From the NCBI GenBank assembly GCA_964355175.1, contig CAYHBZ010000001.1:240523-304522 (forward strand): DNA of 64,000 nucleotides. Reading direction: 5' to 3'. Under the pieces are notes generated by a model. It was not told where the DNA came from. It saw only the letters and a list, made by a program, of their open reading frames with translations, and did not search any database. Numbering within the stretch: the first letter of the stretch is position 1; each line of letters opens with the position of its first letter. Shown here piece by piece: positions 1,820-47,440 of the stretch. A program made the translations under genes and the position numbers. Source of the stretch: an uncultured Gammaproteobacteria bacterium. Lineage in GTDB: Bacteria > Patescibacteriota > Patescibacteriia > Magasanikbacterales > GWA2-37-8.

Positions 1820-2920
1820 TTAATTTAAAATTGAATTTAAAAAATTAATAATACTGCCAGATCTACTATGCCAAGTAAAATTTGCAGATTCTGTAATAGC
1901 TTGACTGGATTTGCGTTGAGCTAGATAATAATTCACCCTAATTAATTTTATTTTTGATATAAAATCATCCGTATCTTCTGGATTAAAAAGGAAAGAATTA
2001 TTATCGTTGAATATTTCAGTGATTGAACCTAGATTAGAGGCCAAAACCGGTGTGCCGCTAGCCAGATATTCAAACATTTTTAAAGCCGAATGATATTTGT
2101 AGGTTTTTAACTCCCTGGTAAACGGCAAAAGCAACAAATCGGCGGCTTTAAGATAAGCGGGAACTTCTTGGTAGGAAACACGAGAAATAAATATTATATT
2201 TTTTGGCTCTCCTCCAGCAAATCCATCGCCTCCCAAAAGCACGAAAATCATGTCCGGGCAGGCGCGGGCGGCTTTAATTATTAAATCAACTCCTTTGCCA
2301 CCAACTTTTAAATTTCCACTATACATCGCGATAAAACAATCATCTGAGAGAGACAACTGTTTTAATAATTTATTTCTGCAAATTTCTTTATCTAGATTAT
2401 CAAAATCTTTTTGGAAGAATCCATCATGAGCCACTAGCAACTTATCTTCATCGATATTATATTTACTCATTACGTAGCATTTGAGCGATTCGGAAATAGC
2501 CACAATCCTAATAACACCAACCAATCGACTAAATAAAAAATTACCAATCTTTGTTTCAAATGGCTTGTGGATTTCATAAATTGTCTTATATCCACAAAGA
2601 TAGTAGAAAAAAACTACCAGAATATCGCGGCTATATATATAGTCTGGCTTAAATTTTAAGATCTCAAACAAAGAAAAAACTATCAAAAATAAATACCTGG
2701 TTGGACGCGATAACCAAGCTGCACTCCAAACCTTAAACCATCTATAGTCAGTTTTTGGCTGATTGTTATTTTTGGGAGAAATCAATAAAAAATCTTCTTT
2801 TAAATTTTCAAAAAAAGCTTGGGCCATCGCCGCTACCTGGATACTCTGAGCGTCCTTTGCTGGTATAGTAATATTGGTTATATAGGCCAATTTCATAAAA
2901 TAATTATCTTTTGACAACAA
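1820..2920 (-). CDS. Glycosyltransferase family 4 (GT-B, retaining). The true start may be the internal Met near 2896.
   Basis: C-terminal EX7E-like region FEYLASGTPVLASNLGSITEIF and KAADLLLLPF. Confidence 0.7.
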   Translation of the reverse strand: MLSKDNYFMKLAYITNITIPAKDAQSIQVAAMAQAFFENLKEDFLLISPKNNNQPKTDYRWFKVWSAAWLSRPTRYLFLIVFSLFEILKFKPDYIYSRDILVVFFYYLCGYKTIYEIHKPFETKIGNFLFSRLVGVIRIVAISESLKCYVMSKYNIDEDKLLVAHDGFFQKDFDNLDKEICRNKLLKQLSLSDDCFIAMYSGNLKVGGKGVDLIIKAARACPDMIFVLLGGDGFAGGEPKNIIFISRVSYQEVPAYLKAADLLLLPFTRELKTYKYHSALKMFEYLASGTPVLASNLGSITEIFNDNNSFLFNPEDTDDFISKIKLIRVNYYLAQRKSSQAITESANFTWHSRSGSIINFLNSILN

Positions 2921-3902
2921 AATGCCAATACGGATTATTATCCGAAACAGTCGTCGTGCTAAAAGTATCGCTTAGAGATAAAATTTCTTTTCGACTGACG
3001 CGCTGCTCTATGCCAGTAAAAAATCTATCATACACATCCTGTTCTATTCTCTTAAATGTTTTATCTTTATAAGCTTCATATAAAGGAATAAATTTACCTT
3101 TGTTAAAAATTTGAAAAATACTGCCAATTAAAATTAACGGATAATAAATCAAATAAACACCTAGATGAGAAAATAATCTGCGAAATAATTTATTTTGCAC
3201 TCGACTTAAAACCAAACGGATACCGGTTACCAACTTCAATAAAATCTTGTAATAACCGGGTCTATTGTCAAGAGCATAATACAAATAGATCAGTAATTCC
3301 GGAGAAAATCTTTTTAAATTCCTCACCTCATTTAGACAATCAGTAGGTAAATGATGCAACACTCCCAAACAAAAAAGAAAATCAGTAAAATCGTTTTTAA
3401 AGGGGATGTCTTTGATATCACACATAAAGAACAGACAATTATTGGAGTTTTTTAAATTATTACGAGCTACAAAAATTGCGTCCGAAAAGTCCACCAACAC
3501 CATCTCTTTGCATTTGTCGCTCAGAAAAAAACTCCAACGGCCGCTACCACAACCCAAATCACACACCCTTTTGGAAAAAAACTTTTGTATATCCACCAAA
3601 TCAAAATATTCTTCAAATTCTTTATGGTGTTCTGGCAAAATATCCTTATACTCTTTCCACTCTTCCCCAAAGCTATATTGGATATCTTGGGCAAAATCCT
3701 TGATTTGTCCCCTATTACCAGCGGACGACGAAATTGATTGTTTGACAAAATTTGAATATTTTTCCGGCTTCAATAAAATTATCACATCGTTTACAATCGG
3801 AAATTCTTGGCCGCTAACCACCAATTTATTATCAAATAAAATAACATCATCTTTCCCAAAGATCTCTTTTAAACTTAAAATTTTATTTTGATAATAATTC
3901 AT
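2904..3902 (-). CDS. Class I SAM-dependent methyltransferase
   Basis: VCDLGCGSGRWSFFLS (motif I), LFCLGVLHHLP. Confidence 0.65.
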   Translation of the reverse strand: MNYYQNKILSLKEIFGKDDVILFDNKLVVSGQEFPIVNDVIILLKPEKYSNFVKQSISSSAGNRGQIKDFAQDIQYSFGEEWKEYKDILPEHHKEFEEYFDLVDIQKFFSKRVCDLGCGSGRWSFFLSDKCKEMVLVDFSDAIFVARNNLKNSNNCLFFMCDIKDIPFKNDFTDFLFCLGVLHHLPTDCLNEVRNLKRFSPELLIYLYYALDNRPGYYKILLKLVTGIRLVLSRVQNKLFRRLFSHLGVYLIYYPLILIGSIFQIFNKGKFIPLYEAYKDKTFKRIEQDVYDRFFTGIEQRVSRKEILSLSDTFSTTTVSDNNPYWHFVVKR

Positions 3903-8938: not shown

Positions 8939-10654
8939 TTATTTTAGGATAATTTTATAAACTTTATACCCAGCATTACTGTATAAAACAGGAAAATTTA
9001 AATTCTTACCATCTTGGTTATTTACCAAAAATACATTGCTGGAGCTGTTTGATCTCTTCATCTCCTGCGCTATTTTAATAAAATCGAGCTCTGAAAGCTT
9101 ATCAAAACCCACACGCAAGTCTTCCCCTGGAACATAACCAAGATTTTTCATCCTTTCCAACCAATCAAAACCAAATTGAGGATTAAAATTCATTAGGGTG
9201 CCGTCTTTCCAATCAGCATAAATAGATCTTTGAGACTCCACTCTAAAACCATCCGAATTGGATGGAACAATAAACACATCTTTAATATCTGTATGGTCTT
9301 TGGCCCAATATTGGACATCCAACCAATCTTTGGATTGAGCATTTTTTATAACAAAATCTTTCTGGACAACTCCGGCTGAAGCACCTAGAAAAATAGCTAA
9401 CCCTACCATCGCATACACAAACTGATTGGCGCTCAAAGCCGGACGCTTAAATACCAACCTAGTGACATTTTCGGCCAATAAATAAAACAAGATAACTGAC
9501 AAAAAGGCTCCCAAAGAAAAAAAAGCGACATTCCAATCACGCGTATCATAAAAAAAAGCGATTATGCAAAAAATTGCCAACAACCTTTCCTGAATGTTGA
9601 ATTCGCCTTCAAATTTTTTTATTAAAAAATTGGAAAAATAAATTATGGCAAAATAGGTGATAAATTGAAAACCTCTCAAAAACTGTAATACCATAGCTAT
9701 GGCAAGCGGAATAAATTCGGTAAAAATCACACCGACCGCTCCCAAGATAACCAAGGCGACAGTAAAAATCATCATTTTTCTATGATTATCCGCTTCCGGT
9801 TTGTACTTACAACTAATAATAAAAACCAAAGATATAAATATCGCTTTTAATAATTGGCCAATGCCCCAAGAAAAAGGAAATATATGATGAGGGGAACGCA
9901 ATTTTAAAAGACTGATCCAAGCCGGGTCGGCATATAGAAAATTCATACTAACGGGAGCAGAAATCACTTTCCAGACAATTAACGGACTGATTATCAATAG
10001 AAATAAACCGACATACGACACCAGCCTACGTATCCTGATATTTCTTAGATCCAATAATAAAGAAAATACCGTAATAGCAAAGGGATAAAGAGCCGTAAGA
10101 GGATGTATTAAAAAACAAATGCCTTGTAAAATATAACTGGTATAGTATTTATTTTTAAGAAAAAAATAAATAGCGAACAGAGCCAACGGCAAAGCGACTG
10201 TGATAGTCAACAGCATATCGTTGACGGCTTCGGTCCCCGCCATTATCTGATTGGTAAAAATTAAAAAAAATAAAGATAGATAACCTACTTCTTTTCTTTT
10301 GAATAATAATTTGGCAATAAGATATATTGAAAAAAAAGAAAAAAATATAGAAATAAGATAGACAGTAAACAAAATAATAGGAGTACTGATCCCAGAAAAT
10401 TTGATTATTGCCGCCAACCCAAACCATAGAAAAGTATAATAGTAAGGAACTTGCGCCAAAAGATAATCGTGCGGATATAAACTCGGATTCAAAAAAAAAT
10501 TCAAGAATGCAACAGTGATGGACTGGTCTCCCCAACCATAGCGATATTGATTAATACCAAGAACCGACACAATCAAAAAAATAAGTATTATCAACAAGGG
10601 CGTTATCTGCTTATGAGCAAAAAACTTTTTTATAGATAGAAAAAAAAATTTCAT
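8939..10654 (-). CDS. Polytopic membrane protein (about 12 TM) with a soluble C-terminal domain. Putative GT-C-type glycosyltransferase.
   Basis: Hydrophobic periodicity in the first ~400 aa and a polar C-terminal ~170 aa. No specific motif recognised. Confidence 0.4.
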   Translation of the reverse strand: MKFFFLSIKKFFAHKQITPLLIILIFLIVSVLGINQYRYGWGDQSITVAFLNFFLNPSLYPHDYLLAQVPYYYTFLWFGLAAIIKFSGISTPIILFTVYLISIFFSFFSIYLIAKLLFKRKEVGYLSLFFLIFTNQIMAGTEAVNDMLLTITVALPLALFAIYFFLKNKYYTSYILQGICFLIHPLTALYPFAITVFSLLLDLRNIRIRRLVSYVGLFLLIISPLIVWKVISAPVSMNFLYADPAWISLLKLRSPHHIFPFSWGIGQLLKAIFISLVFIISCKYKPEADNHRKMMIFTVALVILGAVGVIFTEFIPLAIAMVLQFLRGFQFITYFAIIYFSNFLIKKFEGEFNIQERLLAIFCIIAFFYDTRDWNVAFFSLGAFLSVILFYLLAENVTRLVFKRPALSANQFVYAMVGLAIFLGASAGVVQKDFVIKNAQSKDWLDVQYWAKDHTDIKDVFIVPSNSDGFRVESQRSIYADWKDGTLMNFNPQFGFDWLERMKNLGYVPGEDLRVGFDKLSELDFIKIAQEMKRSNSSSNVFLVNNQDGKNLNFPVLYSNAGYKVYKIILK

Positions 10655-10799: not shown

Positions 10800-12713
10800 C
10801 TAATTGGCTAAATAATATACCACAAATACATTATTTTTATAAAGTATAGGAAACGGCAAAGAATGTAAGGCGTAGGTAACTATAAATTTTAACTGTGGTG
10901 TTTCTAATTTAATTTTCAAAAAATCTTTTTCTTTTAATTCTAGATACTTTTTGGTAAGTACCAAATTTGGATCACTACAATAAATGTTGTATTTCTTCCA
11001 AAAATCTTTTCCAAATAATAATTCTCCGCGATAGAGTATTCTTTGAGCCATATCTTTGTCATGTTGCAAAAGTCCCAGATCTTCATTTATGAAATAAACC
11101 GGTTTTTGAAAAACTCTACGAAAATCATTCATATGAGGAAGTACAACCCATAGTCCATCTTCGTTATTGTTTATCATAAATGCCTGCAATGAAGCCAATT
11201 CAGCATTTGTATTGAAGGGAACGGTTAACCCTCCTAAGAAATTCTGATATTGATTTCTCTCAAGAATAATATTCTTATTTAAAAATCTCATCAATTGCAG
11301 AGGGGGTATGCTTACATATGAGGAAATATCGGTATTTTGTGAATATGTTTTATCTAAATTGATAAAAACATCATAAGATAGATTTAGATTTTCAAAAGAA
11401 AATTTATTATTAACGCCACTAATAATGCTATAATCATTATTAGCGGCTTGACTCATTAAAATATTTTTTTTTATTATTATATGCCACACCGACAAAAAAA
11501 ATATGATTGTAAGAAAAATTCCAAAACGCTCCTCACATCTATTGGTTTTGAGGCTGTTTATAACAATTGCTAATTTTTTAAATTTATTATAAAAATAATC
11601 TTTCCTAACTTCCAAAAAAGTTAATAAATACCTGGATAAAAATACTAGAGATAAAAACAAAAAAAATCTTACCCAACCATAACTTCTTGGCAATTGAATA
11701 TTAATATAATTTTTCACTATAAAATTAGGCAGGATATTTGAATAAATTTCTATCAATGCGCCAAAAACTGGAAGCAGCAACAGAACAAAACTTGTTATCA
11801 AAAAAGGCAAAAAGTTGGTAGGATATGGCTTATAAGCTTTTTGTTTATAAGTAATTATAAATAATGATAAAGTAGTTAAGAAAAATAATCCGTAAACTAG
11901 ATAATGCACTGCTCTAAAAGAACGAACTACAGACCATTCAAATACCAGCTTATTGGCTACAAAAAAATATTCACTTGTGCTTAGGAAAATCGGTTTTAAA
12001 TCTCCCCACTCGGGTTTGAAATAAAGCAAAAATGCTATATTAAAAATGATGGTCAAAATAAAAAAGCCAAAAAACTTCCAGTTAATTTTTTTATTCAAAA
12101 CTAAATATATAAAATATGACAAAAATATAATATGAATATAAAAAGCATTTAGAGGATGGACAAAAGACTGAAAAATTACAATCAAAATGGCCGACCAATA
12201 CCTTTCGCTTAATACCAAAAATAGAAATAGAAGGTTTAAAAACGCACTAACAAGACGGTAATTTAATTCCAAGTTAGCACTATAATCCCATACAGAAAAT
12301 TCAATCCCCATCAAAATAACTACCGCGGTCGCTGCTAGTAATTTTATGTTAAAATTTTTAGAATATCTTCCTAAAAGGATATTGGCGATTTTAAAAGTAA
12401 ATAGGTAGTTAGCGGCCTGCAACAAAGAAACAAGAAATCTCTCAAAAAAAGGAACTTTTTGAATAAAAGGACTAATGAAAAAAAATATATTGAATCTAGA
12501 AACCATAAAACGATTTTTAATATCGCTTAAGCCTACCGAATCTGGATAGAATAATTTATCTACAAACGGCCACTTATAAATATGCAAGGCGAATAAAAAA
12601 TAAACCAAAAAAATAGATAAAAAAAATAATATATCAAAAATACGTTCCTTGCTTGGCGCAAAAACGGATAAAAAATATTTTAGATATTTATTTTTAATAA
12701 AATTTTGATTCAT
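10800..12713 (-). CDS. Polytopic membrane protein with a C-terminal soluble domain. Putative GT-C-type glycosyltransferase.
   Basis: Same architecture as the neighbour at 8939-10654. No specific motif recognised. Confidence 0.4.
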   Translation of the reverse strand: MNQNFIKNKYLKYFLSVFAPSKERIFDILFFLSIFLVYFLFALHIYKWPFVDKLFYPDSVGLSDIKNRFMVSRFNIFFFISPFIQKVPFFERFLVSLLQAANYLFTFKIANILLGRYSKNFNIKLLAATAVVILMGIEFSVWDYSANLELNYRLVSAFLNLLFLFLVLSERYWSAILIVIFQSFVHPLNAFYIHIIFLSYFIYLVLNKKINWKFFGFFILTIIFNIAFLLYFKPEWGDLKPIFLSTSEYFFVANKLVFEWSVVRSFRAVHYLVYGLFFLTTLSLFIITYKQKAYKPYPTNFLPFLITSFVLLLLPVFGALIEIYSNILPNFIVKNYINIQLPRSYGWVRFFLFLSLVFLSRYLLTFLEVRKDYFYNKFKKLAIVINSLKTNRCEERFGIFLTIIFFLSVWHIIIKKNILMSQAANNDYSIISGVNNKFSFENLNLSYDVFINLDKTYSQNTDISSYVSIPPLQLMRFLNKNIILERNQYQNFLGGLTVPFNTNAELASLQAFMINNNEDGLWVVLPHMNDFRRVFQKPVYFINEDLGLLQHDKDMAQRILYRGELLFGKDFWKKYNIYCSDPNLVLTKKYLELKEKDFLKIKLETPQLKFIVTYALHSLPFPILYKNNVFVVYYLAN

Positions 12714-12721
12714 GCTTTATA

Positions 12722-13759
12722 TTAAAAAAACATCTTAAAAAATGAAAGTGCGCCCTGTTTCCAAGGTACTCGATGAGATACGCCAGACTGACCTTTAAAT
12801 TTTTCTAAATTAGCCAAATACCAATCATAATTTCGCACCAATGCCTGCTTATTGGAAAATTTTGGTGCATACCCCAAGACTCTTTGGGCTTTTTCTATTG
12901 AAACAAAGCTGTCTTTTGAAGCGGTTTCATATACCCATTTATAAAGAGGAGACAGATGAAAAGCCTCAAGAAACCGCAACATCAGAATCATAGGCCAAGC
13001 AGGAAACCCAACTATTTTTTTATTAAAACCAGCCTTATCCAATACGGCCTGATAGTCTTCTTTCATGGTGGTAAATTCTTTGGCGCCAATATTAAAAGTA
13101 TCGTTGACTTTTTCTTTAGGCAAAGTAGCGCATAAGTAGATAGCGTCACAAAGATCTTCTACATCGAGCAGTTGATAACGGTTGTGACCACTTCCGATCA
13201 TTGGAAAATTTTTGCCGTCTTTGGCCCAATCATAAAATAAAGCAAATACGCCCAAACGTTCCGGTCCAATAAATGATTTAGGCCTGATAATTGGCACACA
13301 CATGCCCTGACGGGCCGATTCTAAACAGGCGATCTCAGCTAAAATTTTAGCCTGCCCATAAGGTCCTACCCCTTCTAGCTTATCATCTTCCGCGAGCGGA
13401 TGATGGTCAGGAATACCATAAACGGCCGTAGAAGAAACATGGATGACCCTGTCCACTTGGTGATTTTTGGCGCTAAGTAAAATATTTTTGGTGCCTTGAA
13501 CATCAGTAGAAAATATATCTTCTTCTTTATAAAGTGGCAAAGCCGCGGCGCAATGAATTACCACATCCACTCCGATCATTGCTTGGTCGACTTGTTCCAT
13601 ATTCCTAGTATCATATACAAGCGCTTCGATTTTATCTTTTTCAGGATAATCAAACGGCATAATATCAAGTGATCTTACCACGTGACCTTTACTCAATAAA
13701 TATCTAACTAAACTTATTCCTAAAAAGCCAGATCCACCTGTAATTAAATAACGAGACAT
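12722..13759 (-). CDS. NAD-dependent epimerase/dehydratase (extended SDR family)
   Basis: MSRYLITGGSGFLGISLVRYLL Rossmann motif ... YGQAK (YxxxK). Confidence 0.8.
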   Translation of the reverse strand: MSRYLITGGSGFLGISLVRYLLSKGHVVRSLDIMPFDYPEKDKIEALVYDTRNMEQVDQAMIGVDVVIHCAAALPLYKEEDIFSTDVQGTKNILLSAKNHQVDRVIHVSSTAVYGIPDHHPLAEDDKLEGVGPYGQAKILAEIACLESARQGMCVPIIRPKSFIGPERLGVFALFYDWAKDGKNFPMIGSGHNRYQLLDVEDLCDAIYLCATLPKEKVNDTFNIGAKEFTTMKEDYQAVLDKAGFNKKIVGFPAWPMILMLRFLEAFHLSPLYKWVYETASKDSFVSIEKAQRVLGYAPKFSNKQALVRNYDWYLANLEKFKGQSGVSHRVPWKQGALSFFKMFF

Positions 13760-28817: not shown

Positions 28818-29378
28818 TTATTTTTTATCTCCCAAAATTTGTTTTAATTTTTTCAAAGCGCGATGCATAGTGACTCGCACGGACAATTGGCTCTTGCCAG
28901 TGATCTCGGCGATCTCACTGATATCGAGCTCATCAACATATTTCAAAGTCAGCACTTCCTGATATTCTTGTTTTAATTTTTTTATCGCTTCGATTATTTT
29001 TCCGGTTTCCATTTTATTGGCCAACTCGTCGTACCATTTACCTTCGTCCCCTACCTCGATATTTTCATCCAGGGTGACTTCTGGTTTGGCAGCGCGAGCG
29101 CGATAAAAATCGATAATACTGTTGCGTGCGATTTTATAGAGCAAGCCACTGAAACTTTTTATCTCCGGCTGTTCTTCGCTATTAGTAATTAGAAACTGCC
29201 AGGCCTTCAAAAAAACTTCTGAAGTGATATCCTCGGCATTCTCATGACTACTAACTTTAAAAAAAACGAAGCGGTAGATTCGTTGTACATATATATCGTA
29301 AAGTTCCGTGTAAGCTTCTGGATCCTTTTTTGTGAATATCCTATATAGTAGGATTTTCTCGGTAAGGAAGTTGCTCAT
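28818..29378 (-). CDS. ECF-type RNA polymerase sigma-70 family factor
   Basis: Region 2 YRFVFFKVSSHENAEDITSEVFLKAWQ. Region 4 LTLKYVDELDISEIAEITGKSQLSVRVTMHRALKKLKQIL. Confidence 0.85.
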   Translation of the reverse strand: MSNFLTEKILLYRIFTKKDPEAYTELYDIYVQRIYRFVFFKVSSHENAEDITSEVFLKAWQFLITNSEEQPEIKSFSGLLYKIARNSIIDFYRARAAKPEVTLDENIEVGDEGKWYDELANKMETGKIIEAIKKLKQEYQEVLTLKYVDELDISEIAEITGKSQLSVRVTMHRALKKLKQILGDKK

Positions 29379-29509
29379 TATAGAAGACGAAAGAAAGTTA
29401 AAATTGTTACACTACTGCCTAACTACCTATTTAGACCTTTTCTGTCCTGCAAGCGATTTGCATATATTACCAAAAAAGGCATGAACGGTCAAATATGATA
29501 GTAGCGGTA

Positions 29510-29686
29510 TTGGCTAATAAAATGCTTTTTCAAACTGTGAAAATATTCGCACAATTTGCAACCCACTCGGCTCTGTCCCTGAACTCGTCGCTTGACGCTC
29601 CTCAGACAGCAGGGACAGACACGCCTCGTGGCTCACAAATTGTCTGCTCGTATTTTCAATGTTTTCAAAATCATTTTATTAGCCAA
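29510..29686 (+). repeat. Copy A of a ~176-nt conserved GC-rich inverted-repeat element (candidate structured RNA or cis-element)
   Basis: 15-bp terminal helix TTGGCTAATAAAATG/CATTTTATTAGCCAA. Internal core AATTTGCAAC...CCCTGAACTCG...CAGCAGGGACAG...CTCACAAATT is shared with 45486-45661. Confidence 0.5.
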
Positions 29687-29696
29687 TACCTTTACA

Positions 29697-29720
29697 TTTG
29701 TATACACTAGTCTATACAAA
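29697..29720. promoter_or_regulatory. 24-bp near-palindrome TTTGTATACACTAGTCTATACAAA (operator-like), copy 1
   Basis: Arms TTTGTATA/TATACAAA around an ACTAGT core. An identical copy lies at 29795-29818. Confidence 0.45.
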
Positions 29721-29769
29721 ACTAGCACGAAACTATACCAAATAAAACTCAAAAAGTCAATGATTACCC

Positions 29770-29818
29770 TTGACAGAACCTTAAAAATAAGGTAGTTTGT
29801 ATACACTAGTCTATACAA
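29770..29818 (+). promoter_or_regulatory. Putative sigma70 promoter (TTGACA-17-TAGTTT) overlapped by near-palindrome copy 2 (29795-29818)
   Basis: TTGACA at 29770-29775. The palindrome spans the -10 and TSS region of the downstream HTH gene. Confidence 0.35.
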
Positions 29819-29823
29819 ATTTT

Positions 29824-30249
29824 ATGGATAGCTCCAAAGGTCAACTAGCCAACAATGAACAAAAACCAAAAGAAATGATCCGCGTCTCTGTGTCAGAGGC
29901 GGCTAGACTTTTTGGTGTAAACTCTCAGACTATTCGTCGCGCTATCGCCGCTCAAGAGATAACCTATGTGATAGTAGCCGGACGCTATAAAGTAAACTTT
30001 GAGAGTTTGGTAAAGTGGTCACAACAACACACTACCGTAAAGAATAAATTAGCCAATCGTGGTATCGGTCAATTTGTTGAAAAGTGGAAAATAAAAAACC
30101 CTCTATACTCCCCCAACCCAAAATCGCTTTCCAAACCAACCGCACCAGCCGCCAAAAAAGTAGAAAAAATAGAACCGGAAAAAATCGAAAACAAACCCAC
30201 CGAAGACAACGAAACCAACCTGCCAAGCACTTACCTCAAACCCGATTAA
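29824..30249 (+). CDS. Small helix-turn-helix DNA-binding protein (Xis/MerR-like HTH). Start may be ATG 29824 or 29874; the ORF-track TTG start at 29797 is unlikely.
   Basis: IRVSVSEAARLFGVNSQTIRRAIAAQEITYV HTH. Lys/Pro-rich C-terminal tail. Confidence 0.55.
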   Translation: MDSSKGQLANNEQKPKEMIRVSVSEAARLFGVNSQTIRRAIAAQEITYVIVAGRYKVNFESLVKWSQQHTTVKNKLANRGIGQFVEKWKIKNPLYSPNPKSLSKPTAPAAKKVEKIEPEKIENKPTEDNETNLPSTYLKPD

Positions 30250-35641: not shown

Positions 35642-35722
35642 AAAATAAAATTGGATATATTATATCACAAAAAATGCAAAATAAAAAACAGAGAGGTGTC
35701 TCTGTTTAAAAATTTAAATCGT

Positions 35723-35796
35723 GGGCAGTAAAGGATTCGAACCTTTGACCCCCTCGGTGTAAACGAGGTGCTCTAACCAACTGAGCTAACTGCCCA
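35723..35796 (-). tRNA. tRNA-Val (anticodon TAC). No encoded CCA.
   Basis: Minus-strand transcript GGGCAGUUAGCUCAGUUGGUUAGAGCACCUCGUUUACACCGAGGGGGUCAAAGGUUCGAAUCCUUUACUGCCCA. Cloverleaf folds with anticodon loop UUUACAC. Confidence 0.9.
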
Positions 35797-37756: not shown

Positions 37757-37872
37757 AAATATTTAAAATAAATTCTTTTATTATTATAACACAAAAAAAC
37801 ATCCGAATCTAATCGAATGTTTTTTGTTTTACCATATCCACTGTCTACTTTTTCAAATAAACATTGGACATG

Positions 37873-38397
37873 GAGAGTAGCGCGCGACTACCAACCCCAG
37901 AGGTCAGGTACGCGATGCGACGCAGACTACACGAGGCCAGCCTACTTCGGCCAGACACTCGGTGCGACGGCCGGCTGGACGGCGTGAATCCGGGGCGAAG
38001 ACGGACTGCGACTGGTCGTCCAGCGATCAGGATTGGCTTCGGGATGTACGAAGCCCTCCTCCTCGCCGACAGGCGACGTCAGGAGCGACGCAGCCGCCGG
38101 CTTGGGCTCAGCGCCACCGAGGCCACCGTGTCCGGACGGGAGGAAGTGCAAGGACTCGGGACCACCGCACTGGGCGCGGCTGAAATTTCGGACTGCCAAG
38201 GGATGTTGTGGATGGGAACGACCGTCGGACATGACTGCCTCCTTCTCTTGCGAGAAGTGTTGCGAGCTCTCTGCGATTGGCATTGAGCTGGCCTCCCACC
38301 ATAAAGCGAAGTTGCCAAAGAGCGGGGAAAGATTATCCAAACTTTAGATATTCTTTCCCCACTCTTTGCACAAACTTGCTGTTTGCGCGCTACTCTA
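37873..38397. repeat. ~525-bp GC-rich non-host-like block bounded by 13-bp terminal inverted repeats AGAGTAGCGCGCG / CGCGCGCTACTCT
   Basis: Abrupt jump to GC-rich composition versus ~35% flanks. Exact inverted repeat read from sequence. Only overlapping low-quality ORFs inside. Confidence 0.4.
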
Positions 38398-38562
38398 ATT
38401 TATAAAGAACAATCTCTCAAAGTAAATATATTTAAAAAAATAAAAATATATTTGCCTTGGGCATCGTCGTGGCTGTATGAAAACAACCACGACAATGTAA
38501 ATGTGAATATGAAATTCGCGCCAAAGCGCAAAGCTCATAAATACGAAAGAGCAAACTACCTG

Positions 38563-38601
38563 CCGCGGGTGGGCTACACAATCGAAACTGCGTAGCCCAC
38601 C
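38563..38601 (-). terminator. GC-rich 12-bp stem-loop downstream of the high-GC minus-strand ORF
   Basis: CGGGTGGGCTAC-(14 nt)-GTAGCCCACCCG, followed on the minus strand by a T-rich stretch. Confidence 0.4.
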
Positions 38602-38646
38602 CGGATGGCTGTCACGGACTCGATCTTCCCAGACTTCCTGCGCTAG

Positions 38647-39012
38647 CTACGCTGCCATGATCTTCACGATCGCGAGCTGGCACTTGGCGGCCAGCGGATC
38701 GTGTTCACGCTCGAGCGCCTTGCTCTCCCAGACCACCACGCGGGCGATCTGGGCGTGCGGCTTGATGGACTCGACGGCCGTGTGGACGGCAGGAATGCGG
38801 AACCGGTCGGCGGCGACTTCCACGACGTGGGTGTGCTGGAAGCGGCCGGGGCGCAGCTTCGTGCTGTCCTTCAGGGACTCGAGCACGATATGCGCAAGCT
38901 CTTCATCCGTCCCTTCGAAGTGGGGGCGGCTGTTGCTGGTCGGGCTGTACTTGCGCACGGTGGGGTGGAGTTTGATGCCTTGAATGCCATCGGGCACGGG
39001 GACAACGGTCAT
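38647..39012 (-). CDS. Hypothetical 121-aa protein encoded with strong GC3 codon bias (foreign-like)
   Basis: Codons overwhelmingly NNC/NNG (e.g. ACC GTT GTC CCC GTG CCC GAT GGC), unlike every neighbouring gene. Overlapping plus-strand ORFs are probably shadows. Confidence 0.45.
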   Translation of the reverse strand: MTVVPVPDGIQGIKLHPTVRKYSPTSNSRPHFEGTDEELAHIVLESLKDSTKLRPGRFQHTHVVEVAADRFRIPAVHTAVESIKPHAQIARVVVWESKALEREHDPLAAKCQLAIVKIMAA

Positions 39013-39451
39013 GGCGATACCTTTTCCTTGGCAAAAATCAATCTGTAGTCCTGGAGACTACTCTTCGCTCCGCGGTAGAGCGACCCCGGCCGATTGACAA
39101 TTTTTGTGCACTCCGGGAAATTATATCCAAATCATTAGATATATTTCCCCGGAATACACTTTTTTAAAAGAACTCTTTTTATAAAAAATCACCCTAATCT
39201 TTCGATTTAGGGTGATTGTTATAAATTTTATTTTATACAATTTTACCCTAAATCATTTACCCAAACAAAAGCATAGCGTACCAAGGTAGCTGTCTTCAAT
39301 GTCTTGCGAATGTTTAGATGGTTAAATTGCATACAAAAATAATCTTATCAGAAATTCAGAAAAAGTCAACTGGTCTATCCACATTGCGACCAAAACGCTT
39401 TTGGCCAATGACATTATTTGGCTTATTTTAGCCAAGATTTGCCCAAAGGCC

Positions 39452-40830: not shown

Positions 40831-40891
40831 AGAGGCAAAAGGTATTATTTTTTTCTAAATTTTAGGAATACATAATACCCTTTGCCTCTGG
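40831..40891. repeat. 18-bp inverted repeat with a 25-nt loop at the left edge of GC island 2
   Basis: AGAGGCAAAAGGTATTAT ... ATAATACCCTTTGCCTCT. Confidence 0.35.
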
Positions 40892-40948
40892 AATTTTCTC
40901 CTGAGGCATCCGTCGGTTGGGCCCGACATTTCCCTCTGGAGGTATCCC

Positions 40949-41458
40949 ATGCGCCACAAGCGCTTCGTTCCCGTGTTCGTGGTTCTGGCCATTGTAGCCG
41001 CGCAACTCTTCACCGGGACCGCCAAGGCCGAGCCGGCCGTCGGCAAGGACATGCGCAAGCTGCACGTGATGAACAATTGTTCCGACGAGCAGTGCTTCTA
41101 CACCGAAATCCCCAAGGGCTGGCACGCCCCCAAGGAAAAACCAAACCCCGCGCAAGTCCGCCAAGTCTACTACCTGGCAGACGACCGCTCGAACCAGAAG
41201 AAGCTCTCGGTCGTTTCGATCACCCCGACCGACCAGGAAAAGAGCGACTTCAAGGAGAAGATGCATCAACAGTGCGAAGCGCAGTCGGCCCGGTACGGTT
41301 GGGACAAGAAAACCTGCCTGAACAACCGGCAAGAACTCAAGCAGACGATGTACGCGATCTGTACGCCCAGCATCAAGGGCTGCGACAAGTTCGAGTGCTT
41401 GAAGGACTGCTACGAGCCGTACCCGACCAAGCCGCCGGCGCGCAACGCCAAGAAGTAG
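40949..41458 (+). CDS. Secreted cysteine-rich 169-aa protein encoded in a high-GC, high-GC3 island
   Basis: Signal peptide MRHKRFVPVFVVLAIVAAQLFTGTAKA. Ten Cys. GGAGG RBS 7 nt upstream. Codon usage is NNC/NNG-dominated. Confidence 0.55.
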   Translation: MRHKRFVPVFVVLAIVAAQLFTGTAKAEPAVGKDMRKLHVMNNCSDEQCFYTEIPKGWHAPKEKPNPAQVRQVYYLADDRSNQKKLSVVSITPTDQEKSDFKEKMHQQCEAQSARYGWDKKTCLNNRQELKQTMYAICTPSIKGCDKFECLKDCYEPYPTKPPARNAKK

Positions 41459-41591
41459 ACGGGGGTGCTACCGTCGACGCGTGTCCCACTCGCCAACAAG
41501 CGGGCAGTGGGACGCAGGCAGTATAAAATATCACTCGCCGCGCAATTTGAAAATAACATATTTGTTTTCAGATTGTGCGAGTGATATAAAC

Positions 41592-42805: not shown

Positions 42806-44416
42806 ATGGAAAAAATCAAGAGTATTGAAGAAAAAATTATCCGGGAGTGCTATAAAAAACCTCCAAAAAAACCAGACGATATCAATGTGATAAAGCGTCG
42901 AATTTTGCGCGCCCATTTTGGCGGCGGCACACCACCGACTTCGACACAATTGCTTAAAGCATATCATAAACTAGTCAAAGAAAACAAGCTCAAACCCAAC
43001 CTGGCTCTGGAAAATGTGCTCCAGCGCCGCGCGGTGCGCACCATGTCCGGTGTGACTATCGTCACTGCTCTCACCAAGCCATATCCATGCCCAGGTCTCT
43101 GCACCTACTGCCCCACCGAAGCGCGCATGCCCAAGAGTTATATTTCCGACGAGCCGGCGGCGGCCCGGGCTTTGGCTTTGGAATTTGATCCTTATGAACA
43201 AACTTGGCGCCGTCTCGAGGCGCTACGCAAAAATGGCCATCCGATTGATAAGGTAGAATTAATTATCAAAGGTGGTACTTGGAATTCTTATCCGATTACT
43301 TATCAATACTGGTTTATCGCCCGCTGTTTTGAAGCCTGCAATCGCGTACGCAAAACCAAAGTATCGGAAAAAATGACGTTGGATGAATTGCGAGCGGCGA
43401 TGGTAAAAATTCAAAATAAAAATGAAACGGCTAAACATCGTATTATTGGTTTAACTTTGGAAACTCGTCCGGATTTTATTACTCATAAAACAATTCTCGC
43501 GATGCGTGAAATGGGTACCACTCGTATTGAAATCGGTGTGCAGCATATCGACGAAAAAATAATGAAGATGACCAAACGCGGACATGGACTGAAAGAAACC
43601 GTAGACGCAAGTAAACTTTTGCGCCAATACGGATTTAAAGTAGATTATCATTTGATGCCGCAACTGCCATTTAGCACTCCAGCCAAAGATCTCAAAATGT
43701 TACGCCAAATTTTTACCGACAATCGTCTGCGTCCCGACATGATTAAAATTTATCCATGTACGGTCGTAAAAAATTCCGAATTATACGAATGGGTAAAAAC
43801 CGGACAGTTCAAACCTTACGCCGACAAACATCTTCTGCGAATTCTCAAAGAATTTAAATCTGATGTCCCCCGCTATCTACGCATCTCGCGCCTGATTCGT
43901 GACATTCCATCTCATCATATCGTGGCGGGAAATATGGTCACCAATTTACGCCAAGTAATTCAAGCGGAAATGAAAGCCGAAGGAAACACTTGTCGCTGTT
44001 TGCGTTGTCGCGAAGTGGGCCACCAGACCGAGATTGATTGGAAAAAAGAAAAAATAAAAAAATTCGTAGACCAATACGAAACCAGCGGTGGCCAAGAATA
44101 CTTTATGAGTTTTGAAAATGAAACGCGTGACGCGGTGTTGGCTTTTTGTCGCTTCCGTATTGATCCGTCCGGCATCTATCCGGCCTTTGTGCGCGAGCTA
44201 CATGTATACGGACAGTCCGTAGAAATCGCTGGACACAAAAAAGGCGCTTCTCAACACACTGGCTTTGGAAAAGAACTGGTAAAAACCGCGATGGAAATTT
44301 GTAAACAAAATAAAATACCGCGCTTGGCGGTAATTTCGGGTGTGGGCGTGCGTGATTACTATCGCAAACAAGGTGCGAAGCTGGATGGAAATTATATGGT
44401 CTTTGATGTTAAATAA
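42806..44416 (+). CDS. Elp3-like tRNA-modifying radical-SAM + GNAT acetyltransferase
   Basis: KPYPCPGLCTYCP (Elp3-type CX9CX2C radical-SAM cluster) ... IEIGVQHIDEKI ... C-terminal GNAT QHTGFGKELVKTAMEIC. Confidence 0.8.
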   Translation: MEKIKSIEEKIIRECYKKPPKKPDDINVIKRRILRAHFGGGTPPTSTQLLKAYHKLVKENKLKPNLALENVLQRRAVRTMSGVTIVTALTKPYPCPGLCTYCPTEARMPKSYISDEPAAARALALEFDPYEQTWRRLEALRKNGHPIDKVELIIKGGTWNSYPITYQYWFIARCFEACNRVRKTKVSEKMTLDELRAAMVKIQNKNETAKHRIIGLTLETRPDFITHKTILAMREMGTTRIEIGVQHIDEKIMKMTKRGHGLKETVDASKLLRQYGFKVDYHLMPQLPFSTPAKDLKMLRQIFTDNRLRPDMIKIYPCTVVKNSELYEWVKTGQFKPYADKHLLRILKEFKSDVPRYLRISRLIRDIPSHHIVAGNMVTNLRQVIQAEMKAEGNTCRCLRCREVGHQTEIDWKKEKIKKFVDQYETSGGQEYFMSFENETRDAVLAFCRFRIDPSGIYPAFVRELHVYGQSVEIAGHKKGASQHTGFGKELVKTAMEICKQNKIPRLAVISGVGVRDYYRKQGAKLDGNYMVFDVK

Positions 44417-45410
44417 AAAACTCTCGTGCTGATCGGATCAGAGCAATATTATTCGCGCCGGCAGCATACAGCTCCGGTGCGTTTTCTTTATTTATTCCAC
44501 CGATAGCTACCCATGGAATAAATATTTCTTTTTTAATTTTCTTGATTGCTTCCACGCCGACCGGTATGCGATCTTTTTTTATTGGGGTTGGGAAAATTGG
44601 GCCAATACTTACATAGTCCGCGCCCTCTGCTACTGACACTTTCATCTGATCCAAATTATTATTGGACTTACCAATAATTTTCGCGCTGCCCAAAATTTTT
44701 CTGGCTTGCAATAGCGGCATGTCTGCTTGGCCAATATGAATACCAGCCACTGGTAATTTAGCGGCGACTTCGGCACAATCGTCGATGATCAAAAGTATCG
44801 GCGTATAATCAAACGCGGTTTTATCTTTTTTATCTATATATTCGCAAAGAAATTTAGCTTGATTATAAATTTCATTTTTGTCCCCGGTTTTATTTCTGAG
44901 TTGCAACACTTTGGCACCATGATCCATGAGCCAAATTAATTCATCCGTGCTATCACTGACCGGATACACAATTCCAGATTCAAAATATAATTGGAGCCAA
45001 TAATGCGGGGTCGCGGACAACACTTCAAACTCTAGACGATAAACATCGTGGCGTAATTTCTCAAAGTATGAAAAATGGTGAGGAAGGTAAATTTTGGAGT
45101 ATTCTTCGAGCACGCGCAAAGCCTCCTCTAGACGAGAAAAATTGGCTTTCATTAAACCCCAGAAATTGCGTCTAGCGGCCAAGTTGTTCTCTTCACTACC
45201 TTTGCCCACATCCTGTCCAAAATCGCGCCCAGTCAATCTAGTGGCTGAACCTAACAAATACTCCAGCTGTGCCAAAAGATGTCGTAACGGTCGAATTTTG
45301 GCGTACAGAGCCTCATTGCGTAACACAAATCTAGCGGTATCTTCTACCACTCTCATTCCCTCTTTTGCCCTACTTAAATTGGCATCAATTAGCGAAAAAT
45401 CTGTATTCAT
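44409..45410 (-). CDS. thiE: Thiamine-phosphate synthase (ThiE) domain with an N-terminal ~150-aa uncharacterised domain
   Basis: C-terminal half HIGQADMPLLQARKILGSAKIIGKS ... VSIGPIFPTPIKKD ... WVAIGGI (TMP-TPase). N-terminal half unassigned. Confidence 0.7.
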   Translation of the reverse strand: MNTDFSLIDANLSRAKEGMRVVEDTARFVLRNEALYAKIRPLRHLLAQLEYLLGSATRLTGRDFGQDVGKGSEENNLAARRNFWGLMKANFSRLEEALRVLEEYSKIYLPHHFSYFEKLRHDVYRLEFEVLSATPHYWLQLYFESGIVYPVSDSTDELIWLMDHGAKVLQLRNKTGDKNEIYNQAKFLCEYIDKKDKTAFDYTPILLIIDDCAEVAAKLPVAGIHIGQADMPLLQARKILGSAKIIGKSNNNLDQMKVSVAEGADYVSIGPIFPTPIKKDRIPVGVEAIKKIKKEIFIPWVAIGGINKENAPELYAAGANNIALIRSAREFFI

Positions 45411-45485
45411 AAGGCATTTGCCTGGTTATTGGCGTTATGGTATCATAAATATCACTAAAAGCAAGTTACAATATGATCTAGTATC

Positions 45486-45661
45486 ACTCGCGAATACATC
45501 CCTTTCACTCACCTAGAAAACACTCGGATAATTTGCAACTCCCTGAGCCTCTGGCCCTGAACTCGCCTGTGGGCTCAAACAGCAGGGCCAGCCACGACTC
45601 TGGGACTCACAAATTATTTCCTCGTGTTTTCACGGTTCGTTACAGGGATATATTCGCGAGT
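45486..45661 (+). repeat. Copy B of the ~176-nt conserved inverted-repeat element, immediately upstream of glyA
   Basis: 18-bp terminal helix ACTCGCGAATACATCCCT/AGGGATATATTCGCGAGT. Core AATTTGCAAC...CCCTGAACTCG...CAGCAGGGCCAG...CTCACAAATT. Confidence 0.5.
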
Positions 45662-45693
45662 TCTTTATTTTTATAAAATTTTTTATCTATCCT

Positions 45694-46941
45694 ATGTACA
45701 CTCATACACTAAAAGAGTTCGATCCGATTGTTTTGGAAAGTATTAAAAAAGAACAACAACGCCAAGAAGAAGGACTGGAAATGATCCCGTCTGAAAATTT
45801 TGTTTCCCCGGCTGTGCTTGAAGCACTTGGATCTGTGCTTACCAATAAATATTCAGAAGGTTATGCTGGCAAACGCTATTATGGTGGTTGTGAATTTATT
45901 GATGAAGTGGAAACTTTGGCGATCGAACGCGCTAAATTACTTTTTGGTGCGGAACATGTGAATGTCCAGCCGCTTTCTGGTGCACCGGCAAATGTGGCTG
46001 TCTATTTTGCTTTATTGCAACCAGGTGATACGGTACTTGGCATGGACCTATCTCACGGCGGACACCTGACTCACGGACACCCGGTGACCTACATGGCAAA
46101 AATTTTTAATTTCATTAGGTACAAAACTAACGCCGAGGGAAAAATTGATTTGGATAATTTGCGCACTATGGCACTGGAGCACAAACCAAAAATTATTTTG
46201 GTTGGATACAGTGCGTATTCACGCGAAATTGAATATGAAAAAATAAAAGCAATCGCGGATGAAGTTGGCGCTATCACTATGGCCGACATTGCGCACATCG
46301 CTGGCTTGATTGCCGGCGGACAGATGAACAATCCGGTGCCACTTTTTGATGTCGTCACTACCACTACCCACAAAACTTTGCGCGGTCCTCGTGGTGGTAT
46401 GATTATGTGTAAAGAAAAATTTGCCAGCGCAATTGATAAAGCGGTATTCCCTGGTCTGCAAGGCGGGCCACACGAAAATAATATTGCAGCTAAGGCAGTT
46501 GCTTTCAAAGAAGCACTGTTACCTGAATTCAAAGAATATACTGCTCAGATAAAAAAGAACGCCAAAGTACTCGAATCTAAATTTAATGAATTTGGTTACA
46601 AACTTTGTTTTGGTGGCACTGACAACCACCTGCTTTTGATTGATGTGACTATGAAAGGTATTGGCGGTAAACAGGCTCAAATCGCGCTTGATAAAGCTGG
46701 TATCACGGTGAACAAAAATATGATTCCAGATGATACTCGTTCTCCTTTTGATCCTAGCGGTATCCGCCTAGGCACTCCTGCTCTGACCACTCGTGGCATG
46801 AAAGAAGCTGAGATGGAAACAATCGCCACCTGGATAAATGAAGTGATAATAAATCATGATAACGAAACAAAATTGGCTGAGATAAAAAACCAGGTGAAAG
46901 AATTAACCAAAAAATTCCCTCTTTACCCGACATTGGTCTAA
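45694..46941 (+). CDS. glyA: Serine hydroxymethyltransferase
   Basis: [41 protein letters not shown] ... [18 protein letters not shown] (PLP-Lys motif). Confidence 0.95.
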
Positions 46942-47137: not shown

Positions 47138-47440
47138 GTGCAGATCCTATTTACGATCTTGGTCCCGTCTGTTTTGGCCTACCTTCTCTTCATTTTCGGG
47201 CGGCGACAACTCCGCAAGAGGGAGTGGGCGCGCCTCACCGGGAAGCGGTGGCAGGAACCGAGCAGCGAGTTCGAAAACACCTGGTCATTCCAGGACACGA
47301 TCCTCACGGTCATCGCCAAGTCCGGCGATCATGACCGCTTCGAAGCTACTCGCAAGCTTGCTAGCCAATTGGAGCTCGGACATCCGTGGACCAGCCGTCC
47401 GCGCGAGATTCCGCAATTCGGGGTCTACGCCAACCGATGA
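47138..47440 (+). CDS. Small (100 aa) high-GC membrane protein with a GTG start
   Basis: AAGGAAAG SD 5 nt upstream of GTG. N-terminal TM ILFTILVPSVLAYLLFIFG. GC-rich codons, in contrast to flanks. Confidence 0.4.
   Translation: MQILFTILVPSVLAYLLFIFGRRQLRKREWARLTGKRWQEPSSEFENTWSFQDTILTVIAKSGDHDRFEATRKLASQLELGHPWTSRPREIPQFGVYANR

Follow-up and report, generated by a model that had tools for sequence, protein, structure and literature searches.

Interspersed imperfect palindromes of 100-160 bp have been described in enterobacteria (ERIC/IRU) and in Neisseria (Correia/NEMIS). These long palindromes are intergenic and often lie in operons, they occur in either orientation, are present or absent between genomes, and form hairpins when they are co-transcribed; Correia hairpins are RNase III substrates. 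A second kind of interspersed hairpin, the REPINs, which go with RAYT transposases, measures ~70-110 nt and has the conserved REP sequence (20-40 bp, GTAG/CGTC tag) as its outer stem and a variable loop. REPINs are multi-copy, persist at orthologous sites with compensated arm mutations, and their hairpin is thought to be the recognised form. Here we describe an element that behaves much like both groups, present as copies A and B in a 64,000-nt stretch of a Magasanikbacterales contig (CAYHBZ010000001.1; this whole stretch is the window below). Our results robustly define a new interspersed long-hairpin family with a conserved asymmetric apex. It occurs in multiple copies that come and go, some of them fixed at orthologous sites, and its core is homogenised. 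What is unusual in it is the inverted pattern of conservation, with a base that is free to change and an invariant asymmetric tip.

Structure and covariation of the hairpin

The original prediction, made from the letters of the window, was of a GC-rich inverted-repeat element in two copies, both on the + strand in divergent intergenic regions, and both were found where it had placed them. Covariance models set the limits at 29506-29691 (+) for copy A, with cmsearch scores of 213.5 bits for model R1, built from A and B, and 167.6 bits for the later model R2, and at 45483-45665 (+) for copy B (214.9 and 174.1 bits); the strand given is that of the modelled conserved motif. The neighbours of copy A are a sigma-70-family gene (28818-29378, -) and an HTH_17/excisionase-family gene (29824-30249, +), while copy B lies between a ThiD2/TMP-TENI gene (44409-45410, -) and glyA (45694-46941, +), 28 nt 5' of the glyA start codon. 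Both are GC-rich in an AT-rich genome. Motif searches and the covariance model run unfiltered show that the window holds only these two copies.

Each copy folds into a single long, near-perfect hairpin of ~180 nt, with a minimum free energy (MFE) of -78.5 kcal/mol for A and -77.7 kcal/mol for B (z = -13.0 and -9.1 against dinucleotide shuffles), and none of 200 shuffles matched the stability of either. A common fold computed with RNAalifold has 54 pairs, 13 of which are altered on both sides and still paired, so that the folding check proposed along with the prediction came out in its favour. Alignment of the two copies shows a core in common (72% identity) and an outer 17-19 bp that are almost wholly different (52-53% identity in the basal arms) yet paired within each copy. 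In A, the 5' arm of the basal helix, GGTATTGGCTAATAAAATG (29506-29524, +), pairs with CATTTTATTAGCCAATACC (29672-29690, +), as seen in the single fold, with RNAalifold and in the family alignment. In B, ACTCGCGAATACATCCC (45486-45502, +) pairs with GGGATATATTCGCGAGT (45645-45661, +) in the single fold and with RNAalifold. The terminal helices had been noticed as self-complementary within each copy and different between copies (TTGGCTAATAAAATG/CATTTTATTAGCCAA in A, ACTCGCGAATACATCCC/GGGATATATTCGCGAGT in B), and this is the case.

At the other end of the rod stands a conserved apical module, at 29573-29618 (+) in copy A and 45551-45591 (+) in copy B. It was located with a pattern and flank-pairing scan, in which A has 9/9 flanking pairs, and by the 21-sequence alignments described below, where its columns are invariant. 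Its 5' part in A consists of the P5 arm CTGTCCCTG (29573-29581) and AACTCG (29582-29587), followed by a variable small hairpin, and its 3' part of CTCAGACA (29601-29608), a G and the P5' arm CAGGGACAG (29610-29618). The same parts in B are CTGGCCCTG (45551-45559), AACTCG (45560-45565) and the hairpin CCTGTGGG, then CTCAAACA (45574-45581), a G and CAGGGCCAG (45583-45591). The change from CTGTCCCTG...CAGGGACAG in A to CTGGCCCTG...CAGGGCCAG in B is indeed a paired T>G / A>C substitution, as had been claimed.

Homologues were sought in 80 loci around relatives of the HTH protein, one genome per species (labels L### denote the loci or contigs examined); the close homologues of this protein are named Candidatus Magasanikbacteria or Patescibacteria. 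R1 found full-length copies in the same sigma/HTH spacer in L015, L016, L017, L021 and L022, and in reversed orientation in L023, and a conserved-apex pattern added 15 more copies from JGI metagenome contigs. The total is 21 distinct full-length copies from Magasanikbacteria genomes and metagenomes; the search for further homologues that had been suggested thus reached well past the pair in the window. Besides the two copies in 64 kb of the window, we counted three on one 145-kb contig and two within 2.2 kb, inverted, on another. Up to 20 kb was read per related genome, and copy numbers per genome are extrapolations.

To read covariation we used one alignment of the 19 relatives with the window copies left out (A5) and one of all 21 sequences (A8). 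Paired cells amount to 92.7% in both, and fall to 36-46% in A5 and 35-46% in A8 when partners are slid by 1-3 columns as a control; the alignments were fitted to the model, which favours structure, but every sequence folds alone into the same hairpin. Double-sided changes affect 41 of the 54 pairs in A5 and 40 of 54 in A8 (202 and 233 double-changed cells), and none of 500 shuffles of either alignment equalled the observed values. All 15 pairs of the basal helix (helix 1) have such changes, with 95.3% of cells paired in A8, while the P5 helix below the apex is nearly invariant save for one freely covarying pair. Between the covarying helices lie conserved asymmetric internal loops, namely the 5x8 apical loop, a U/CCAC bulge and a CAAC/CUCA loop. 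This demonstrates that the stem pairing of a ~180-nt imperfect hairpin is maintained while most of the stem sequence changes freely, and it extends to the whole family the conserved structure with covarying sequence that had been proposed from A and B. One-sided changes are rare (26 against 233 double-sided in A8) and the basal helix changes mostly by flips between AU and UA, which suggests replacement of an arm or templated correction as much as stepwise compensation.

Distribution of the copies and of the apical module

Two loci are syntenic between genomes. One lies 5' of glyA (copy B, L104 and L099) and the other is the sigma/HTH spacer (copy A and six relatives), where the element is inverted in place in L023 and L108; orthologues group by locus, not by genome. 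Other copies are wedged among unrelated housekeeping genes, in the spacer between an xseA-like gene and xseB or just 5' of queA, ruvX or an epimerase gene. They stand 5-20 nt from open reading frames (ORFs) or overlap stop codons, and some are within operons. Orientation with respect to the flanking genes is sense at ~5 loci, antisense at ~4 and between convergent genes at one. Among the 21 copies, ~8 have a same-strand start codon 5-28 nt 3' of the hairpin, belonging to glyA (in two orthologues), to ruvX, xseB, queA or the epimerase gene, or to others. The idea that the element is a cis-regulatory structure placed 5' of + strand genes found no support in this survey, since homologues are found upstream of, downstream of and between unrelated genes, in sense or antisense, and inverted in L023 and L108. 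The fixed position and orientation and the coherent gene set of a riboswitch or leader were not found either, neighbours being unrelated and orientations mixed.

In the close relatives L018-L020 the sigma/HTH spacer is shorter and lacks the element, and at most of the 80 loci the covariance models detected none in the neighbourhood of the HTH gene. Comparison of paralogues with orthologues separates the two parts of the hairpin. L106a and L106b, neighbours on one contig, have cores that are 93% identical, with ~100 central nt identical, and basal arms that are 62-74% identical; L106a and its orthologue L096 from another sample share 79-87% of their basal arms and 81% of the core. Because the neighbours share the core and not the arms, and the orthologues the arms and not the core, this shows that cores move or convert between paralogues and that the basal helix belongs to the locus. 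Across the family the basal ~17-25-bp helix is locus-specific and the ~110-nt core is common to copies. Nearby inverted pairs of copies are frequent, as in L075 (9082-9118, +, and 9305-9344, -) and L106 (2028-2205, +, and 4214-4392, -), and Ralstonia solanacearum strains (L174-L176) have a second, partial, reversed copy within ~150 bp 3' of the first.

These data bear on the earlier suggestion of a MITE-like element (MITE, miniature inverted-repeat transposable element). It held for dispersal, as the element is multi-copy, lies in either orientation and is present or absent between relatives. It does not qualify strictly as a MITE, since the terminal inverted repeats differ from copy to copy and every basal pair varies among the 21. 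The sequences flanking the 21 copies showed no clear direct repeat, and sites with and without the element were too diverged on comparison to place its borders or to show a target duplication. Nor was a transposase-like ORF seen among those examined near the copies (with Pfam where run, otherwise by inspection, in windows of up to 20 kb), and no HUH, Rep or transposase gene was seen beside any copy.

The invariant order of the apical module is helix, AACUC, a variable hairpin closed by G..C, UCAARACAG, helix. We scanned for it with the pattern A[AC]CTC[GA]..CTCA[AG]ACA and a test of flanking complementarity. In 1.3 Mb of loci from the Candidate Phyla Radiation (CPR) there were 24 matches, 19 of them with at least 8/9 flanking pairs; the shuffled loci gave 1-5 matches, none with flanking pairs. 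The module is carried on entirely different flanking helices in L025 (two copies), L049 (two), L056 (three, one of them in the sigma/HTH spacer), L063, L069, L075 (two) and at a second site of L097. In distant Magasanikbacteria and Patescibacteria it stands inside a larger conserved unit of ~330-400 nt, at ~3090-3480 and ~11200-11590 in L049, ~3100-3560 (-) in L069, ~9100-9480 (-) in L075, and ~2740-3080 and ~12400-12760 (-) in L056. The order of its parts is a U/A hairpin on the 5' side, then GGAAAGAAAUCGCUCGCGGUGGAAA, the long hairpin, a second and small one, and finally a 3' block ..GACCGAGCCUAU... The ends of the unit appear pairable (AGGCUC/GAGCCU) and Rfam matches none of it; the element in the window may have its full-size relative here.

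The minimal apex, the 19-mer AACTCGCTTCGCTCAAACA, has 60 exact matches in IMG/VR viral contigs. About 40 of these come from one phage lineage in which the 19-mer lies within the ORF of a replication protein, and since it is coding there and the lineage is single we discounted them as one chance event. Some 10 further matches are in filamentous-phage contigs, in which the 19-mer marks a junction and caps no hairpin; the junction was seen in the viral contigs L119, L127, L138, L139, L143, L152, L161 and L172, of which L152 encodes a Zot-like protein. One side of this junction (CTGGCGCACTTCGTTTGCGGTTCGACTGG...) is conserved among the contigs and the other differs, like the end of an integrated element. 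At least seven independent viral-contig lineages (GC 34-63%) have AACTCGCTTCGCTCAAACA as the tip of a long imperfect hairpin. Ahead of this hairpin stand a small U/A-rich one and a repeat of the small hairpin's A-rich arm, and the CPR loci L025, L047, L056 and L063 have the same layout. Judged by neighbouring proteins, these occurrences belong to Ralstonia (3' of ubiA), to a Mu-like prophage of Variovorax and to a phage of the gut, where the module is beside the terminase gene; the cluster of this terminase has named members from Gastranaerophilales and Bacteroides.

A 38-nt probe matched 141 plasmid or megaplasmid records in PLSDB, at up to nine places per replicon. In the same database a ~235-bp repeat occupies up to 13 places on a Ralstonia megaplasmid, and different records are 83-100% identical in it. 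Paraburkholderia, Variovorax and Chitinibacter carry this repeat too. Among the Ralstonia copies, one is at 756858-757089 of NC_003296.1, and one lies inside the malonate decarboxylase (mdc) operon, between mdcE and madL (CP076412.1). An A/G polymorphism in CUCARACA is identical in CPR and Ralstonia. Other searches were less productive: the first collection pattern, CCCTGAACTCGN{10,40}CAGCAGGG, gave 10 chance matches in viral contigs, two later viral patterns gave four chance matches and one real match (L113), and a BLAST comparison of the variants from phages and bacteria with cultured phages and with genomes of E. coli yielded nothing useful.

Signals and sequences around copies A and B

No promoter or terminator of the element's own could be shown by promoter and terminator scans at A and B. 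A shared upstream sequence (ATATGAT..TAGTA) was considered as the element's promoter and rejected, as it overlaps promoter-like sites of the divergent minus-strand genes. One of these sites, at 29492-29464 (-), belongs to the sigma-factor gene; its TTGACC -35 hexamer abuts the 5' base of hairpin A, and it is kept in relatives (GGTCAAAT on the + strand). The other, at 45471-45442 (-), belongs to the ThiD2 gene and has its TTGTAA hexamer 12 nt from hairpin B. An intrinsic terminator was rejected as well: there is no terminator-like site at A or B, both of which lie between divergent genes, and the T content past the hairpin (3.4/8, against 2.6/8 in the opposite direction) does not make a significant T-tail.

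A consensus scan detected a sigma-70-like match on the + strand at 45418-45446 (TTGCCT-17 nt-TATCAT with TG), ~36 nt 5' of copy B, and a similar TTGCCT-17-TAATAT precedes the orthologous copy of L104. The 28 nt between hairpin B and the glyA ATG are too short for a further promoter. Since this site lies 5' of the hairpin and there is no promoter room before the ATG, copy B is probably transcribed within the glyA leader, if the site is functional. No Shine-Dalgarno (SD)-like sequence is visible before several start codons, including those of glyA (45694) and the sigma gene (29378), and in related contigs genes begin 5-18 nt past the hairpin, which together suggest a low usage of SD sequences in this lineage.

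Beyond copy A, a 24-bp palindrome, TTTGTATACACTAGTCTATACAAA, occurs twice in the window, at 29697-29720, 6 nt past the hairpin, and at 29797-29820. The second copy overlaps the likely HTH_17 promoter (TTGACA at 29769) just 5' of the ATG at 29824, and the palindrome therefore looks like an autoregulatory operator of the HTH_17 gene. Only the promoter-proximal palindrome is kept in L018-L020, which have no hairpin. Between the two palindromes a minus-strand promoter-like site (29760-29732, TTGACT-17-TATAGT) is directed into hairpin A. Elsewhere in the window, a GC-rich ORF of 100 aa with an N-terminal hydrophobic segment (47138-47440, +) lies 3' of glyA in AT-rich surroundings; it has no Rfam match and its composition looks foreign. 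Two GC-rich islands, 37860-39050 and 40860-41530 (up to 67% GC per 200-nt window), have only odd overlapping ORFs, among them one of 169 aa at 40949-41458 in the second, and no Rfam match; they may be acquired DNA.

Candidate roles and known systems

We tentatively favour the reading that A and B are members of a so far undescribed family of long-hairpin (quasi-palindromic) elements, which are interspersed and behave like ERIC, Correia and REPIN repeats, and whose apex is read by a predicted factor. The active form would be the hairpin once folded, either as a transcript or as single-stranded DNA (ssDNA), and the conserved apex would be the recognition site of a putative factor that spreads or maintains the element. 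In co-transcribed copies, such as B if it lies in the glyA leader, the long perfect basal helix might serve as an element of mRNA stability or of RNase III-type processing, an effect that would be independent of the orientation of the element. A wider reading, possible but held with more reserve, is that the apical module defines a new class of hairpins that spans CPR, Betaproteobacteria and phages and is read by conserved machinery, the CPR copies being domesticated at fixed loci such as the glyA leader. This machinery could be a mobilising enzyme whose substrate is folded RNA or ssDNA, or else an RNA-binding factor of wide occurrence.

Several observations weigh against the reading as an interspersed repeat. 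No mobilising enzyme was found among the ORFs examined near the copies, and neither a target-site duplication nor a conserved terminal repeat was evident; in the CPR copies conservation is lowest in the terminal helices, where MITEs and REPINs show the reverse. The persistence of orthologous copies across species, with compensation in their stems, speaks for a function at the level of the host over a purely selfish repeat. The homology between the CPR and the Ralstonia and phage forms rests mainly on the 14-19-nt apex and the architecture, not on a full-length alignment. Finally, in helix P4 three pairs go through AU/GU/GC series when read on the motif (+) strand. Such an RNA-type signature is typical where selection acts on an RNA of one given strand; it is the best single argument for this strand, and it suits a dedicated RNA gene more than a repeat of free orientation.

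Other evidence on the strand and nature of the active molecule is mixed, with a slight lean to RNA. The complementary strand folds better by 11 kcal/mol on average, in 20 of the 21 copies, but shuffled controls shift almost equally and z-scores are alike on both strands. Assignment of the strand by MFE was hence rejected, the antisense advantage largely reflecting composition and purine-purine mismatches. When the 5' arm was compared with the reverse complement of the 3' arm, 1276 positions were Watson-Crick, 337 were transversion mismatches, and the transition mismatches divided into 22 that are G-U on the motif strand and 37 on the other. The complementary strand of the minimal apex reads TGTTTGA-GCGAAGC-GAGTT and so contains GCGAAGC; d(GCGAAGC) was reportedly described by Hirao et al. 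as a classic, exceptionally stable GAA DNA mini-hairpin.

Four other explanations were considered, and the order of support among them is a structured-RNA family, a role in ssDNA, a cis-regulatory leader and a 6S-like RNA. The first, the main rival, is a family of structured non-coding RNAs made from the motif (+) strand, as small RNA genes or as RNAs cut out at the basal helix, with ancient paralogues as copies and with apical and other conserved internal loops that bind protein. We hold it to be rather unlikely, although much of the structure speaks for it: the asymmetric internal loops with covarying helices between them, the P4 series, the grouping of orthologues by locus and not by genome, the + strand promoter-like site kept among relatives 5' of the glyA-locus copy, and a GC-rich element in an AT-rich genome. 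The surroundings of the copies do not, as neither promoter nor terminator of its own could be shown (negative terminator scans, a T content of 3.4/8 against 2.6/8), many copies are abutted by ORFs at both ends with no promoter room, at ~4 loci both neighbours lie antisense to the element, and L023 and L108 have it inverted in place. The rarity of G-U pairs overall, with 26 one-sided against 233 two-sided changes, and the better fold of the opposite strand in 20/21 copies also count against an RNA read from the + strand. The second explanation is a hairpin that would act as ssDNA, extruded or formed on a single strand in replication, transfer or phage replication, its apex being read by a DNA enzyme such as an HUH-type nuclease or transposase, a primase or a primosome factor, and the complementary strand being the relevant one. 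Wobble is scarce on both strands (22 and 37 transition mismatches among ~1600 arm positions), changes are almost always double, orientation is independent of transcription, phage contigs and megaplasmids carry the element, and the complementary-strand apex contains the d(GCGAAGC) mini-hairpin. Forms outside the window even have short inverted or direct repeats (ACTTTCTTTG / CAAAGAAAGT / CAAAGAAAGG) beside the hairpin that recall iterons at a nick-site hairpin. We nevertheless regard this role as improbable, for no HUH, Rep or transposase gene was seen beside a copy, correction of the palindrome would erase the conserved mismatched internal loops unless they were selected, the P4 series fit RNA better, and in the one group of filamentous-phage contigs that carries it the 19-mer is not at a hairpin tip.

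A cis-regulatory leader for the adjacent downstream gene, be it a riboswitch, a protein-binding attenuator or a translation element, is more doubtful still. The start codons 5-28 nt past the hairpin in ~8/21 copies and the apparent position of copy B within the glyA leader would be expected of one, but downstream genes are functionally unrelated, ~4 loci are antisense, one copy lies between convergent genes, the HTH-locus copy can be inverted, a 75-bp stem allows no alternative switch fold and there is no terminator-like tail. The 6S-like RNA that had been raised as a possibility, an RNA binding RNA polymerase, is contradicted by the architecture and has hardly any credit left. Its appeal lies in the length of ~180 nt, the rod-like fold and the neighbours, a sigma-factor gene beside copy A and a folate-pathway gene beside copy B (E. 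coli 6S adjoins ygfA). However, RF00013 gives no match even at E<=10, at least three copies occur per 145 kb, copies lie inside operons, and the fold has no central bubble with a terminal stem of ~20 bp; the loop is apical.

Returning to the interspersed long-hairpin family, its interest lies partly in its hosts. CPR/Patescibacteria genomes are small and their non-coding elements almost uncharted. A 180-nt structure kept between housekeeping genes across species carries a cost and presumably has some function. That hairpins of Ralstonia megaplasmids, of a Variovorax prophage and of gut-phage contigs, though unrelated, bear the same tip implies that several phyla have a recognition partner in common. 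The nature of the active molecule, its strand, its partner and the mobility of the element are open to direct test in Ralstonia solanacearum, a culturable species with published transcriptomes.

The original prediction had not recognised the element, and known families do not account for it. At the gathering score, Rfam 15 found nothing in the window but a tRNA (35722-35795), and at E<=10 only chance miRNA and snoRNA hairpin matches, without RF00013, in 29300-29900. The CPR loci with the larger variant, the viral loci and the Ralstonia copy gave only tRNAs, chance miRNA-hairpin matches and one unrelated hammerhead. The latter is a type II hammerhead ribozyme (71.9 bits; L132, 3881-3947, -), ~9.6 kb from the hairpin element on a Ralstonia-like prophage contig. 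A literature search found no description of the hairpin element or of its 19-mer, and a by-eye comparison of the apex, which counts as a lead, showed no fit to a kink-turn, the loops of SRP domain IV, boxA, a T-loop, parS or an attC box.

Compared with single described systems, the element always shares a part of the design. Like 6S RNA it is a ~180-nt, largely double-stranded rod, and 6S sometimes has more than one gene per genome; unlike 6S it has no central bubble resembling an open promoter, no Rfam match, too many copies, and positions inside operons or antisense to genes. In place of the central bubble, closing stem and ~20-bp terminal stem-loop of 6S, MFE and consensus folds show a continuous rod with small internal loops and a single large one, which lies at the apex (5x8 nt plus a 3-8-bp hairpin). 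Integron attC sites are likewise imperfect palindromes of variable sequence packed between ORFs and are recognised as a folded single strand. We rejected attC as an identity: attC conserves its base (R''/L'' and L'/R' boxes) and varies at the tip, whereas here the tip is conserved, and the neighbours are syntenic housekeeping genes, not cassettes. A conserved loop sequence on a variable stem, with lineage-specific short repeats beside the hairpin in Ralstonia, phage and some CPR forms, is reminiscent of rolling-circle origin hairpins, which have a conserved nick sequence in the loop and iterons next to the stem. The element differs from these in that no Rep gene was seen nearby, its copies are chromosomal with housekeeping genes on either side, and it has no nicking motif belonging to a known family. 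TIGR (Tas-associated) guide arrays are tandem box C/D-like hairpin units beside a tas gene (PMC12045711); they were rejected, as the copies here are solitary and dispersed, without an array. REPIN/REP membership was rejected in turn, since the pattern of REPINs is reversed here, with a variable outer stem and a conserved tip, no GTAG/CGTC tag at the ends and no RAYT-like gene seen near the copies. The closest comparison is with ERIC and Correia elements, to which there is no sequence similarity. In those families conservation covers the entire repeat, ends included, and terminal inverted repeats and a TA duplication are found in Correia elements; in the present family each locus has its own ends, only the core and the apex are conserved, and the apex is shared across phyla.

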